The notes beneath the pieces were generated by a model, which was not told the origin of the DNA, searched no databases, and was given only the letters and a program-made list of their open reading frames with translations. Shown here in pieces: positions 1-10,143 of a DNA stretch of 10,143 nt (position 1 is the stretch's first letter; every line of letters begins with the position of its first letter). The translations under genes and the position numbers were made by a program. The stretch is from a virus. The stretch lies in UHGV virus genome UHGV-1652557, one strand, 5' to 3'.

Positions 1-94
1 ATGCTTCCATCGGAAACGATGATCTGGCAGCCTGAGTTCACAGATAAAACACTCTCCAGGAAACCCGGGGCGGTTCAAATTGCCTCTTTGCCCG

Positions 95-796
95 TCATAC
101 AGTTGCTCCTTTCAGTCCGAACTTCGCTTTGATTTCTGCGATCTTCGCCAGAGCCTGTGCACGATTTAGAGGCCTACCGCCCATGACAGGAAGTTGTTTT
201 ACTGGTTCAGGTATCGCCTCACCACGGTTAATTCGCGCGGTCATACAGGTCAGCTCATCGGCAGCTTTACGCCGTAATTCCGCGTCAGTCAGCGCATTGG
301 CCCGCATGTTCTGGTACAGGTTGGTAACCAACCAGTAGTGCGCGTTTGATTTCCATGGATAAGACTCTGCGTCCGGATACAGGCCACGCTTCCGGCAATA
401 CTCGTAAACCATATCAACCAGCTCGCTGGCGTTTGGCAGTCCGGCGGTAACGGATGCTTCTTCCCGGCACCAGGCGACAAACTGCCCGGGTGATGGCAGG
501 AATGGTCGATTCTGCCGACGGGCTACGCGCATTCCTGCGTTAACCTGTTCCATTGTGGTGATCCCGTTTTCCCGGAAAGCCAGAACCCACTGGCGGCGGA
601 TTTCGTTCAGTTCGTTCTGGTCCCGGTTAGCCAGGCTCGCCGGGAAAGTTGCCAGTAACTGGCTGAACACACCGTTGATGATCCGCGCTACCTGCTGTAC
701 CTGCGGCTTTTCGTCGTACTGTTCCGGCATGTTGTTGGCGATCCGGCGCATCTGCTCACGGTCAAAGTTAACCATCTGTGCGGCGATGTTTTTCAT
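95..796 (-). CDS. P: Replication protein P (lambda P-type DnaB helicase loader)
   Basis: 233-aa ORF whose translation matches lambda P as I recall it, with only a few substitutions. Its start ATG (796-794) overlaps the O stop (795-793) in an ATGA arrangement. Identity was not computed. Confidence 0.93.
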   Translation of the reverse strand: MKNIAAQMVNFDREQMRRIANNMPEQYDEKPQVQQVARIINGVFSQLLATFPASLANRDQNELNEIRRQWVLAFRENGITTMEQVNAGMRVARRQNRPFLPSPGQFVAWCREEASVTAGLPNASELVDMVYEYCRKRGLYPDAESYPWKSNAHYWLVTNLYQNMRANALTDAELRRKAADELTCMTARINRGEAIPEPVKQLPVMGGRPLNRAQALAKIAEIKAKFGLKGATV

Positions 797-3671: not shown

Positions 3672-4052
3672 ATGAGAAAAATCCTAATCGCTGCCATGAT
3701 GGCATCTGTATTGGCTGGGTGTGCTTCTTCAGGCAACCAGCAACTCAAAAATGAAACTGAAATTAGTGTCCAGTCTAAACTTCAGGAAGGTAAAACAACC
3801 AAGAATGAGGTTAAATCTTACTTTGGTTCTCCTGATGCTGTTTCATATACTGACAGTGGAAACGAGATCTGGAAGTACGCCTTTGCAAAAGTAAAAGTTA
3901 ATGGCACCACTTTTATTCCATTCTATGGATTATTCCATAATGGAACGAACGGTACGAAAAAAGAACTTACTATTCTTTTTAACGATGACACGATTAAGAA
4001 ATACACAATGTCAGAAACCCAAATAAACTCGAAATCAGGTTGGGCTGACTGA
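3672..4052 (+). CDS. Lipoprotein moron with a BamE/SmpA-OmlA-like domain (candidate lysogenic-conversion or superinfection-exclusion protein)
   Basis: 126 aa. Signal peptide with lipobox LAGC (MRKILIAAMMASVLAGC). Mature part shows a BamE-like pattern (KTTKNEVKSYFGSPDAVSYTDSGNEIWKYAF ... LTILFNDD), from memory. Preceded by an AT-rich 228-bp spacer with a perfect TATAAT at 3651-3656. Followed by a strong terminator. Confidence 0.85.
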   Translation: MRKILIAAMMASVLAGCASSGNQQLKNETEISVQSKLQEGKTTKNEVKSYFGSPDAVSYTDSGNEIWKYAFAKVKVNGTTFIPFYGLFHNGTNGTKKELTILFNDDTIKKYTMSETQINSKSGWAD

Positions 4053-5902: not shown

Positions 5903-6579
5903 CACCGGACATTATCCTGCAGCGTACCGGAATCGACGTGAGAGCTGTCGAACAGGGGGATGATGCGTGGCACAAATTACGGCTCGGCGTCATCACCGCT
6001 TCAGAAGTTCACAATGTGATAGCAAAACCCCGCTCCGGAAAAAAGTGGCCTGACATGAAAATGTCCTACTTCCACACCCTGCTGGCTGAGGTTTGCACCG
6101 GTGTGGCTCCGGAAGTTAATGCTAAGGCGCTGGCATGGGGAAAACAGTACGAGAACGACGCCAGAACTCTGTTTGAATTCACTTCCGGCGTGAATGTTAC
6201 TGAATCCCCGATCATCTATCGCGACGAAAGTATGCGTACCGCCTGCTCTCCCGATGGTTTATGCAGTGACGGCAATGGCCTTGAGCTGAAATGCCCGTTT
6301 ACCTCCCGGGATTTCATGAAGTTCCGGCTCGGTGGTTTCGAGGCCATAAAGTCGGCTTACATGGCCCAGGTGCAGTACAGCATGTGGGTGACGCGAAAAG
6401 ATGCCTGGTACTTTGCCAACTATGACCCGCGTATGAAGCGTGAAGGCCTGCATTATGTCGTGGTTGAGCGGGATGAAAAGTACATGGCGAGTTTTGACGA
6501 GATGGTGCCGGAGTTCATCGAAAAAATGGACGAGGCACTGGCTGAAATTGGTTTTGTATTTGGGGAGCAATGGCGATGA
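5899..6579 (+). CDS. exo: Exo (Red-alpha) 5'-3' exonuclease
   Basis: 226-aa translation matches lambda Exo from memory. ATGA overlap with the bet stop. Confidence 0.96.
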
Positions 6580-6758
6580 CGCATCCTCACGATAATATCC
6601 GGGTGGGCGCGATCACTTTCGTCTACTCCATTACAAAGCGAGGCTGGGTATTTCCCGGCCTTTCTGTTATCAGAAATCCCCTGAAAGCACAGCGGCTGGC
6701 TGAGGAGATAAATAATAAACGGGGAGCTGTATGCACAAAGCATCTCCCGTTGAGTTAA
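6576..6758 (+). CDS. Lambda orf60a-like exo-xis region protein
   Basis: 60-aa reading from the ATG at 6576, overlapping the exo stop. Same length and position as lambda orf60a. An alternative ATG lies at 6570. Confidence 0.75.
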
Positions 6759-6922
6759 GAACGAGTATCGAGATGGCACATAGCCTCGCTCAAATTGGAG
6801 TCAGGTTTGTGCCAATATCAGTAGAAACAGACGAAGAATTTCATACGTTAGCCGCATCCCTTTCACAAAAGCTGGAAATGATGGTGGCGAAAGCAGAAGC
6901 AGATGAGAGAGACCAGGTATGA
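6731..6922 (+). CDS. Lambda orf63-like exo-xis region protein
   Basis: 63-aa ORF overlapping orf60a by 28 nt, the same overlap as in the lambda annotation as I recall it. Confidence 0.75.
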   Translation: MHKASPVELRTSIEMAHSLAQIGVRFVPISVETDEEFHTLAASLSQKLEMMVAKAEADERDQV

Positions 6923-7312: not shown

Positions 7313-7534
7313 ATGGCAGACATAATTGATTCAGCATCAGAAATTGAAGAATTACAGCGCAACACAGCAATAAAAATGCGCCGCCTGAACCACCAGGCTA
7401 TATCTGCCACTCATTGTTGTGAGTGTGGCGATCCGATAGATGAACGAAGACGACTGGCCGTTCAGGGTTGTCGGACTTGTGCCAGTTGCCAGCAAGATCT
7501 GGAGCTTATCAGTAAACAGAGAGGTTCGACGTGA
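7313..7534 (+). CDS. TraR/DksA-family C4 zinc-finger protein (lambda Orf73-like RNA polymerase-binding regulator)
   Basis: 73 aa with CxxC-(17)-CxxC (CCECGDP...CRTCASC), typical of TraR/DksA C4 fingers. Same size and position as lambda orf73. Confidence 0.82.
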   Translation: MADIIDSASEIEELQRNTAIKMRRLNHQAISATHCCECGDPIDERRRLAVQGCRTCASCQQDLELISKQRGST

Positions 7535-7938
7535 GCGAAATTAACTCTCAGGCACTGCGTGAAGCGGCAGAGAAAGCCGGTGAAGATAAGTGGCAGGCTA
7601 AAAAAATAAATGGTGATTTTTTCGTTATTCGTCACGGTAGTTATACAAGACAGCATGGCTACACATCGTATCAACCCATTGCGGAGATTGATTGTAAGCC
7701 AGTCCGGGATTTTGTTGCCAAGGCTAATCCGGCTACCGTGCTGGAATTACTGGATGAACTGGAAGCAGCAAAAAAGCGCATTGCAGAACTGGAAGCGCGG
7801 GAAATACTGCTCCCGGAACGTAGCAGCATGCTTCATCGAACAGATTTTCACGATGATTACCAAACGGTAATGGCATACAAAGTTTCTGAAGTCATCGATG
7901 CAATCCGCGCTACTGGCATTCGCATCAAAGGAGAGTGA
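7531..7938 (+). CDS. Ead/Ea22-like protein
   Basis: 135-aa ORF with a GTG start overlapping the preceding stop (GTGA). Coiled-coil segment PATVLELLDELEAAKKRIAELEA resembles the Ead/Ea22-like family, from memory. Confidence 0.65.
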   Translation: MSEINSQALREAAEKAGEDKWQAKKINGDFFVIRHGSYTRQHGYTSYQPIAEIDCKPVRDFVAKANPATVLELLDELEAAKKRIAELEAREILLPERSSMLHRTDFHDDYQTVMAYKVSEVIDAIRATGIRIKGE

Positions 7939-7939
7939 G

Positions 7940-8695
7940 ATGATTCACTACCACGGTGGGCCTATTACTCCTGATACGTGCGCAATGAGAGCATGGAAAG
8001 GGCGACATGCGTTTATCAGTTTTGCGCATTCAGGCCAGATCAATCTCGCGGCTGAATACTGTCAGTCGTTCGCGCTGGACAACGGTGCATTCACCGCCTG
8101 GAAAGCAGCTGGCAAAAACAAAATCGACTGGAGCGATTACTACGAGTTTGTTGCTCGCTGGAAGAATCACCCAGGATTCGATTTTGCCATTATCCCGGAT
8201 GTTATTGATGGCGGAGAGGAGGAAAATGATGCGCTTCTGAATGAGTGGCCTCACGGAAAACTAGCTGGCGTTCCAGTGTGGCACATGAATGAAAGTGACG
8301 AGCGATTTATTCATTTGTGCAATGAGTTTCCGCGAGTGGCTATCGGTAGTTGTGGCGACTATGACGTAAAGCGCCCAACTCTTGCGGTAGCCAGAATGAA
8401 AGACCTGATTCGTCACATTGTTGATGGGCATGGTCAGCCGGTTACGAAACTACATGGATTGCGCATGTTAAATCCGCTGATATTCACAAAATTACCCTTA
8501 GCCAGCGCAGATAGTACGAACGTCGCTCGAAACATCGGTATTGATAAAGCCTGGTCTGGGGCTTATGCACCTGCAAGTAAAGAGACACGCGCAGCATTAA
8601 TGGTAGAACGGATTGAGGCACACAATAGCCCTGGTTCTCTTGCGTATTGTGAACAACGCGACCGCTTTGAAATGCAATTGCAACTAGCAGTTTAA
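7940..8695 (+). CDS. TGT-fold protein, candidate DpdA-like 7-deazaguanine DNA transglycosylase
   Basis: 251-aa reading from the ATG at 7940 with an AAGGAG RBS. The upstream ATG at 7898 overlaps the Ea22-like gene by 41 nt. Motifs LDNGAF (D47, nt 8078-8080) and D191-STNVARNIG (nt 8510-8539) resemble the tRNA-guanine transglycosylase motifs DSGG[FY]Q and FDCVxPTRxARxG, from memory. No C-terminal zinc subdomain. Functional call is tentative. Confidence 0.6.
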   Translation: MIHYHGGPITPDTCAMRAWKGRHAFISFAHSGQINLAAEYCQSFALDNGAFTAWKAAGKNKIDWSDYYEFVARWKNHPGFDFAIIPDVIDGGEEENDALLNEWPHGKLAGVPVWHMNESDERFIHLCNEFPRVAIGSCGDYDVKRPTLAVARMKDLIRHIVDGHGQPVTKLHGLRMLNPLIFTKLPLASADSTNVARNIGIDKAWSGAYAPASKETRAALMVERIEAHNSPGSLAYCEQRDRFEMQLQLAV

Positions 8696-8705
8696 GGACT
8701 AACAA

Positions 8706-9281
8706 ATGACCACTATTACCAAAGAACGTATTGAATTGTTCATTAAAAATCCGCTTGAAAACGGGCTTACTCGTGGCGAACAAATGGAACTGGCACGAAT
8801 TGCACTGGCATCACTGGGAGCAGAATCTGTAAGCCAAACTTACAACTTGCCAGAATTAATCGAAGGCATGGAGGTTTCCATTGATGTAAGCACTTGTGAT
8901 GCGGATTTAGGTAATCGCTATTTCGGTACCGTCACCGAGGCGTTAGAACTTGATACTGCCAAGAATGGTTACATCCTCCTGGTTCAGGACGCAGAGCCAA
9001 ACTTCGATATAAATGGCAATTCTCCGGTAACTCCGGATGGTTGGGTTATAGTGCCGAAGAAACTAACCGCTGAGAACGGCGCTAAGGGTGTGCTATCCGG
9101 TGAATTTTCAGAAACTACGTTTATAAGCTGCCCGGAATGCTTTGGTGATGATGATTGCGAAACTTGTGACGGCAGCGGAAGAATCGAAATCAAGGTTCCA
9201 GTCAGTTGGACAACTATCAAAACTATTTGGGCTAAAGGGTGTGAGTACTTTTCAATAGTAGCACCGCAGCAAGATGGGTGA
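8706..9281 (+). CDS. Strongly acidic hypothetical protein with a C-terminal zinc-ribbon (CPEC-x6-CETCDGSG)
   Basis: 191-aa ORF, AAGGA RBS 7 nt upstream, 10-bp gap after the preceding gene. About 31 Asp/Glu against 14 Lys/Arg. C-x2-C-x6-C-x2-C-x-G-x-G motif similar to DnaJ-type zinc ribbons. Confidence 0.8.
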   Translation: MTTITKERIELFIKNPLENGLTRGEQMELARIALASLGAESVSQTYNLPELIEGMEVSIDVSTCDADLGNRYFGTVTEALELDTAKNGYILLVQDAEPNFDINGNSPVTPDGWVIVPKKLTAENGAKGVLSGEFSETTFISCPECFGDDDCETCDGSGRIEIKVPVSWTTIKTIWAKGCEYFSIVAPQQDG

Positions 9282-9987: not shown

Positions 9988-10143
9988 GGCGATGATAAAT
10001 GCACTTCCGAGTTACAGGTGAATGGAATGGAGAACCATTCAACAGAGTTATCGAAGCCGAGAACATCAGTAGACTGGCCCCCTGAATCACCAGACAACCA
10101 ATATCACTTATTTAAGTGATAGTCTTAATACTAGTTTTTAGAC

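Follow-up and report, generated by a model that had tools for sequence, protein, structure and literature searches.

A stand-alone DpdA-like gene between exo and xis of a lambdoid Escherichia coli prophage

Described DpdA enzymes and their relatives

Modification of DNA with 7-deazaguanines is an established counter-defense of phages, with DpdA considered the signature enzyme of it. Phages with a precursor pathway of their own replace ca. 30% of G. In CAjan, where DpdA (gp35, DpdA1 subfamily, 306 aa) is encoded in a folE-queD-queC-queE-yhhQ cluster and acts without a DpdB-type partner, ca. 32% of G is converted to dPreQ0 and the DNA is protected from restriction; when dpdA is deleted, all 7-deazaguanine is lost from CAjan DNA (PMC6884629). 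The bacterial enzyme of S. Montevideo (PDB 7UI4, 413 aa) belongs to a dpd gene cluster, requires the ATPase DpdB, and has a zinc site and DpdA-specific insertions. Its D95 and D256 are essential (PMC10164549), and its GGMV loop (residues 206 to 209) contacts the 7-substituent of preQ0, with Met208 and Val209 selecting preQ0 and excluding preQ1 (PMC10164549).

A third group of phages, 76 in total, has DpdA only and "could rely on preQ0 synthesized by the host" (Hutinet et al. 2019). Supplementary Data 1 of that study lists BTP1 (SIU02687), SPN3UB (YP_007011024), SfI (YP_009147480), HK106, and SEN1 as DpdA-only phages. The DNA of DpdA-only phage 7-11 contains dADG at 0.02% of G and not dPreQ0, and that of DpdA-only phage MED16 contains dADG at 0.13% of G with a trace of dPreQ0; all of the G-site enzymes tested cleaved MED16 DNA, even ones whose sites CAjan DpdA modifies. 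Two other members of the TGT superfamily are relevant here. Tgt (PF01702, 375 aa) has a zinc subdomain and tRNA-binding elements, while Cap10 of type IV CBASS (PDB 9NTN) is a TGT-family enzyme whose zinc site is reported lost, which has a catalytic D248/H226 pair and works with the QueC-like Cap9 and with a CD-NTase bearing the deazaguanine at its N-terminus.

The gene studied here lies in a stretch of 10,143 nt from UHGV virus genome UHGV-1652557, referred to as the window. BTP1 gp23 (SIU02687/YP_009639228) and SPN3UB YP_007011024 are 93% identical to its product over all 251 residues. In both phages, as in the window, the gene has an Ead/Ea22-like gene before it and one of EaA type after it and lies between the recombination genes and xis-int, preQ0 genes are missing, and the host has the full queuosine pathway. 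The differences are that BTP1 and SPN3UB are P22-like with a Salmonella host, whereas the window derives from a lambda-like prophage of E. coli at the lambda attachment site. MED16 DpdA (gp38) is likewise a singleton of the DpdA-only cluster, with no precursor genes and a GSSG-type loop, but MED16, a siphovirus, lacks an annotated integrase in the genome region examined, unlike the window prophage.

A previous reading of the window from its letters (hereafter, the sequence-only reading) had proposed a DpdA-like enzyme using host preQ0 for compact anti-restriction DNA hypermodification. Both the idea of host preQ0 and the proteins of BTP1 and SPN3UB, at 93% identity, are already found in Hutinet et al. 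(2019), which removes any claim to novelty: the proposal correctly re-derives a prediction already in print, and the gene is of a known kind. In a literature search, we found no assay of the BTP1 protein or of the enterobacterial temperate-phage singleton clade. Stand-alone DpdA is common, being present in ca. 4% of complete E. coli genomes, including a Shiga-toxin phage, with >7,800 relatives in public data, and we regard the locus as a useful piece of biology rather than a new kind of system.

The gene in its prophage

The window is 100% identical to positions 3374676-3384818 of E. coli strain DLI.6n (NZ_CP103974.1) and covers the immunity and early-left part of a lambdoid prophage. Replication genes occupy its left side together with a cro-like regulator and an S24-peptidase repressor, followed by kil, gam, bet, exo, small ea-type genes, a DksA/TraR zinc-finger gene, an Ead/Ea22-like gene, the dpdA-like gene, and an open reading frame (ORF) of PHROG 60. 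In the DLI.6n genome, xis and int come next, beside ybhC on the gal side, a location that corresponds to the lambda attachment site. Thus, lying downstream of gam-bet-exo and, in the source genome, upstream of xis-int, the gene does occupy the exo-xis slot of a lambda-type prophage to which it had been assigned. The same gene was observed in strain FORC 064 within a heavily degraded prophage.

Features of the locus are collected in Table 1. The stop codon of the upstream gene (TGA, 7936-7938) is followed 2 nt later by the ATG of the dpdA-like gene, indicating tight coupling of the two, and the next ORF begins 10 nt past the dpdA-like stop. Given this close spacing on both sides, the gene must be part of an operon, with no space for a promoter of its own. 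An alternative in-frame ATG at 7898 could add 14 residues. However, homologues begin at MIHYHGG, with I2, H3, H5, G6, G7, and P8 invariant in their alignment, so that the true start is at 7940 and not at 7898.

TABLE 1 Features of the dpdA-like gene and its neighbors (positions in the window)
Feature	Position	Strand	Comment
Ead/Ea22-like gene	7531..7938	+	Upstream, same operon; Pfam PF13935, E value 2.6e-17; PHROG 1667
Shine-Dalgarno-like GGAGAG	7930..7935	+	4 nt before ATG, read from sequence
dpdA-like CDS, 251 aa	7940..8695	+	RefSeq WP_000582234.1, "hypothetical protein" in E. coli
D47 codon (LDNGAF)	8078..8080	+	Proposed general acid/base; aligned to CAjan D63 (LDSGAFSA)
D87 codon (IPDVIDG)	8198..8200	+	Proposed base-recognition Asp; 57/58; after barrel strand 80-84
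H115 codon (PVWHxxE)	8282..8284	+	57/58; end of barrel strand 113-115 in model
G136-S137-C138-G139 loop	8345..8356	+	Family consensus GSSG; hhalign to CAjan GGMV
H172 codon (KLHGLRML)	8453..8455	+	58/58; 19 residues before proposed nucleophile; aligned to CAjan H187
D191 codon (S-A-D-S-T)	8510..8512	+	Proposed nucleophile, covalent enzyme-DNA intermediate; aligned to CAjan D206 (SCDSSS)
Downstream ORF, 191 aa	8706..9281	+	PHROG 60, E value 2.8e-40

The neighbors on the two sides behave differently across homologous loci. Upstream genes vary among them, and the Ead/Ea22-like gene is context and not a functional partner. PHROG 60 is the commonest downstream neighbor (36 loci among 74 viral copies plus the window); the 191-aa ORF itself had no Pfam match, and PGAP annotates only a partial pseudogene at this position. 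No DpdB-type partner is evident for the window gene. A bacterial Dpd system was ruled out, there being no DpdB or dpd cluster and the neighbors being genes of the lambdoid ea region.

Family membership, predicted fold, and active site

The protein matched PHROG 887 ("queuine tRNA-ribosyltransferase") with an E value of 2.3e-103, and this same PHROG includes CAjan DpdA (8e-96) and MED16 DpdA (3e-70). An hhalign comparison of the 58-sequence family profile with the CAjan DpdA family gave a probability of 99.0% (E value of 2.4e-18 over 174 columns), pairing LD(N)GAF with LDSGAFSA (D47/D63), KLHGL with KVHGF (H172/H187), and SADST with SCDSS (D191/D206). By BLASTP, identity to CAjan DpdA was 25% (3e-9), while MED16 DpdA, the closest analyzed relative, was 38% identical (8e-44). 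On these alignments, the protein belongs to the phage DpdA family, in a singleton clade related to DpdA1. The stand-alone DpdA-like (TGT-superfamily) protein of the sequence-only reading is therefore borne out, both by PHROG 887 and by the hhalign match to a DpdA validated genetically. CAjan DpdA shares with it the PHROG, the aligned Asp/His/Asp, and the lack of a zinc cluster, but differs in its length, its surrounding precursor genes, and its loop (GGMV versus GSCG).

By tblastn of phage genomes, copies were found at 99% identity in an Stx1a-converting phage, at 93% in Salmonella phages BTP1 and SPN3UB, and at 68% in Shigella phage SfI, with a further set at 35 to 45% in Pantoea phage MED16, Salmonella phage 7-11, HK106, the P2-like SEN1 and SW9, and some T1-like phages. 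A word-indexed search scored 7,855 relatives, and 813 clusters were recovered when 50% representatives were searched exhaustively. Compared with copies at 81 to 94% protein identity, pS was 0.66 to 0.89 and pN 0.04 to 0.16 (pN/pS ratio of 0.05 to 0.19). With synonymous sites saturated while pN remains low, the protein is under strong purifying selection. A chance ORF was ruled out by this selection together with the thousands of homologues.

Similarity to canonical TGT or to bacterial DpdA was not detectable in direct sequence comparisons. Searches of Pfam, NCBIfam, and PADLOC with the window protein gave no match (Pfam at E values of ≤10), the PADLOC DpdA model included, and in the PDB sequences, phmmer and the 58-sequence profile found only GCN4 coiled coils (E value of about 1). 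A Pfam scan of all 58 family members gave no TGT match, and thus the resemblance to PF01702 expected of a TGT-fold protein is absent at the sequence level from the protein and from its family. The family profile was also insignificant in hhalign against E. coli Tgt alone and against an alignment of 80 gamma-proteobacterial Tgt sequences (probability of 1.5%). The Pfam and PDB negatives carry little weight, since the validated CAjan DpdA is equally invisible, having no Pfam or PDB sequence match and only a weak one to the PADLOC DpdA model (1.3e-3). Given the insignificant hhalign results, we claim no sequence-level tie to canonical TGT; the relation runs through the fold, the phage DpdA intermediates, and the literature, in which HHpred gave 99.18% for MED16 DpdA and T. 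maritima TGT (MED16 paper).

These comparisons bear on the name that orthologues carry. RefSeq phage records, like PHROG 887, call them "queuine tRNA-ribosyltransferase," and the protein shares the TGT-superfamily fold, so it could be read as a tRNA-guanine transglycosylase altering the queuosine status of host tRNA during infection. We consider this very improbable. The name was transferred by homology, whereas the protein has neither a PF01702 match nor a zinc subdomain, has no significant hhalign similarity to Tgt, and is 124 aa shorter than the 375-aa E. coli enzyme, in good agreement with the ca. 120 aa estimated beforehand. Besides, phage 9g DpdA fails to complement an E. coli tgt mutant, and the closest validated relatives work on DNA.

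AlphaFold with 30 close homologues reached a pLDDT of only 55, and this model was set aside. With the 58-sequence alignment, which includes distant representatives, the pLDDT was 93.3 and the pTM 0.90, and the predicted structure has eight strand-helix units, i.e., it is modeled as a TGT-like (beta/alpha)8 barrel. Cap10 was first in the structure ranking and unrelated TIM barrels began at 13.2, an order that is right with a margin that is small. Foldseek found only generic barrels in the PDB, while among viral models it found 30 matches below 1e-3; either queuine tRNA-ribosyltransferase or tRNA-guanine transglycosylase was the name given to ca. one-third of them, the others were mostly unnamed, and none had another function. 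A Cellulophaga phiST protein came next (1.5e-3).

Conservation was counted in the 58-sequence alignment, which extends down to 35% identity. D47, H172, S189, D191, and S192 were present in all 58 sequences, D87 and H115 in 57, E118 in 56, and G136 in 55. Conservation of D87, H115, H172, S189, and S192 at this level (57 or 58 of 58) places the motifs well beyond chance, and the two aspartates picked in the sequence-only reading, D47 in LDNGAF and D191 in ADSTNVARN, are precisely the invariant ones that align with those of CAjan DpdA. In the model, D47, H115, G136, H172, and D191 are located in barrel strands or at strand ends, and D87 three residues past strand 80-84. It is at such strand positions that the active sites of TIM barrels are found.

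The bacterial DpdA, at 14% identity, offers a residue-by-residue comparison. The order Asp, Asp, His, Gly-loop, hydrophobic/His, Asp appears to parallel its D95, D130, H181, G206-G207, L236, and D256. D47 would then be equivalent to D95 and to D102 of Z. mobilis TGT, and D191 to D256 and to D280 of the same TGT. The equivalence of D87 to D130 is uncertain, as hhalign pairs CAjan D105 not with D87 but with D90, which is conserved in only 33 of the 58 sequences. H115 is a possible counterpart, judged by residue order only, of H181, which reads the Watson-Crick edge. H172 probably represents the His that is conserved in DpdA1 enzymes (H196 of phage 9g) and absent from DpdA2, and its spacing from D191 seems similar to that of the D248/H226 pair of Cap10.

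The five cysteines of the protein (residues 14, 41, 127, 138, and 237) are scattered and none is conserved, indicating that there is no zinc site. The zinc subdomain is thus missing, as had been noticed, but the accompanying statement that bacterial DpdA also lacks it does not hold, since that structure keeps its Zn2+ site (PMC10164549). The CAjan DpdA consensus has no CxCxxC-type cluster. The top rank of Cap10, which is only 9% identical to the window protein, is probably explained by its being the other compact zinc-less member of the TGT superfamily.

The loop is where the clade departs from described enzymes. Its columns are conserved as G55/S47/S39/G43 (of 58), and positions 200-259 of the PADLOC DpdA model match CAjan residues 147-209. 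The window protein has GSCG and its family GSSG, in contrast to the GGMV of CAjan and bacterial DpdA. Gamma-proteobacterial singleton DpdAs, moreover, cluster apart from those of full-pathway phages, and divergence was raised by the authors themselves (Hutinet et al. 2019). The clade may accordingly have kept the TGT/DpdA fold and the catalytic Asp while its function diverged, be it toward another base (ADG, preQ1, or CDG), a signal at a few sites, a base-excising glycosylase, or a non-DNA acceptor as in Cap10. The presence in 7-11 and MED16 of dADG rather than dPreQ0, with no hydratase identified, would fit the first of these. Nevertheless, we judge such divergence unlikely. The equivalence of the two loops comes from profile alignment and not from superposition, and the high rank of Cap10 probably means nothing beyond the shared compact build. 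For a Cap10-like role in particular, the window and the prophage have no Cap9/QueC-like gene or CD-NTase, and PADLOC gave no match; Cap10-like protein deazaguanylation was ruled out on the lack of these partners. Finally, relatives fused to or adjacent to deazaguanine and DNA-modifying functions (see below) indicate deazaguanine and DNA.

A narrower variant concerns the substrate. Instead of a plain preQ0 insertase, the clade might have a wider GSCG/GSSG pocket that inserts 7-amido-7-deazaguanine or another host 7-deazapurine directly. In bacterial DpdA, the cyano group is bound by the Met and Val of GGMV, which keep out larger substituents. A pocket admitting ADG would, speculatively, explain the dADG of 7-11 and MED16 without a known preQ0 hydratase. 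We give this variant a rather low probability; if true, the sparse marks could be a site-specific signal or a decoy against modification-sensing defenses and not bulk anti-restriction armor.

Precursor supply and proposed reaction

We searched for precursor genes by tblastn with CAjan FolE, QueD, QueC, QueE, and YhhQ plus DMCA QueD. These queries had no match in the window, in 49 kb of the source prophage (short of its tail end), in the BTP1 region, or within 10 kb at 80 homologous viral loci (1.1 Mb), and the annotation of the source prophage and of the BTP1 region agrees. The absence of queC, queD, queE, and folE from the window, as originally read, thus extends to the prophage surveyed and to its relatives, and the locus is DpdA-only in the sense of having a DpdA homologue without FolE, QueD, QueE, QueC, or an amidotransferase in the sequence surveyed.

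On the host side, 5425 of the 5426 complete E. coli genomes carried queC. This near-universal distribution makes supply by the host plausible, and phage 9g DpdA provides a precedent, since expressed alone in E. coli it puts host-made preQ0 into plasmid DNA (0.03 to 0.3% of G). Among more distant relatives, a 37%-identical homologue lies directly after queD in Caulobacter phage DMCA, one protein has a QueD/PTPS domain fused to it, and in another the fusion is with a Dam-type DNA methyltransferase. These fusions and the queD adjacency point to a connection of those relatives with the deazaguanine pathway and with DNA.

Taken together, we favor as probable that the gene product is a DNA-guanine transglycosylase of the phage DpdA family, from a singleton clade of gamma-proteobacterial temperate phages, that uses a base of the host queuosine pathway. 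From this we infer its activity, substrate base, timing, and any benefit, as follows. The gene lies in an early leftward (pL-type) operon between exo and xis, translationally coupled to its neighbors. Being downstream of the repressor-controlled region, its product would be expected only after induction or infection and not in the repressed lysogen. D191 would attack C1' of the target deoxyguanosine in double-stranded DNA, displacing guanine, with D47 as the acid/base. A covalent enzyme-DNA intermediate would form, to be resolved by a free 7-deazaguanine base. In a phage without folE, queD, queE, and queC, that base must be from the host queuosine pathway, with preQ0 or a closely related molecule, e.g., 7-amido-7-deazaguanine, as candidates.

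Drawn from the host pool, the base would be expected to replace G sparsely and in limited motifs, the predicted outcome being a low-level, probably motif-specific replacement in phage (and host) DNA during lytic growth. The data for DpdA-only phages fit this expectation and temper the idea of anti-restriction hypermodification; with dADG at only 0.02 to 0.13% of G in 7-11 and MED16, and MED16 DNA cut by all G-site enzymes tested, that part of the original proposal is weak. A low-level mark made from a small host preQ0 pool could still protect a few sites, and it could also expose the phage to deazaguanine-sensing defenses, e.g., GrwAB or Dag glycosylases.

The state of the source prophage raises a separate question. 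In DLI.6n, ISCro1 (IS66 family) lies among the head genes, adjoining the major capsid gene, and of two IS3-family elements, one adjoins a frameshifted ren and the other precedes xis. With these insertions and the frameshift, the prophage may be defective and may no longer yield phage. Together with the degraded prophage of FORC 064, this would be compatible with the gene being an inert passenger in a decaying prophage of DLI.6n, whatever its biochemical capacity. We find this improbable, and it would concern relevance in one host and not molecular function. The family is under strong purifying selection, and the gene was found in 204 (ca. 4%) of the 5426 complete E. coli genomes, mostly at identities of at least 99%, with the ORF intact and 100% identical in many of them.

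Occurrence of the dpdA-like gene across phages and replicons

A homologue with about 40% identity to the dpdA-like protein was found in Escherichia phage LHE71, a T1-like Tunavirus of the Drexlerviridae, where it lies among small early genes (L002, the LHE71 locus, positions 5995-6822) and is annotated as hypothetical. This is a singleton homologue, and therefore singleton DpdAs are not limited to temperate phages. When E. coli genomes were searched, 5 of the 218 occurrences of the dpdA-like gene were plasmid borne, and some genomes carried up to three copies.

Two relatives of the protein (the representative proteins P0233 and P0270) are apparent fusions, one combining a Dam-type N6-adenine DNA methyltransferase with a DpdA-like domain and the other combining QueD/PTPS with a DpdA-like domain. 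We also noticed that a 1,719-bp GenBank entry labeled "Staphylococcus phage SA 1298 Kay" (OR850331.1) encodes a protein 93% identical to the enterobacterial dpdA-like protein; this record is most likely mislabeled or a contaminant.

Genes accompanying the dpdA-like gene in the window

The most frequent 3' neighbor of the dpdA-like gene was the PHROG 60 ORF, present at 36 loci among the 74 viral copies and the window. This ORF had no Pfam match, and the PGAP annotation at its position is limited to a partial pseudogene of 138 bp. The cII position holds a YdaT toxin-domain annotation instead of a lambda-type CII. The lipoprotein-like ORF, which looks like a moron within the immunity region, is named BamE in RefSeq, and its match to the Pfam BamE family was weak (E value of 1.6e-4, under the gathering score).

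Features of the immunity region, the cII position and the region downstream of the dpdA-like gene
Feature	Window position	Strand	Remarks
YdaT toxin-domain protein, 179 aa	1809-2348	-	From annotation; occupies the cII position
Lipoprotein-like ORF	3672-4052	+	Lies between repressor and N/kil region
191-aa ORF, PHROG 60	8706-9281	+	DnaJ-like CxxCxGxxxCxxCxGxG motif (CPECFGDDDCETCDGSGRIE)

State of the source prophage and of the FORC 064 copy

The source prophage, in E. coli DLI.6n, is probably defective. In this genome, the window is flanked by two IS3-family transposase genes (window 1-100 and 10080-10143; positions 18322-19535 and 29661-30889 of L007, the source prophage locus), ren is frameshifted, and the head genes contain an ISCro1 (IS66-family) insertion adjoining the major capsid gene. 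A 100% identical dpdA-like gene was found in E. coli FORC 064, where it belongs to a prophage that shares the attachment site of the source prophage but is heavily degraded. Type III effector genes are also present in this degraded prophage, namely nleB2, nleC, nleD, and nleH1.
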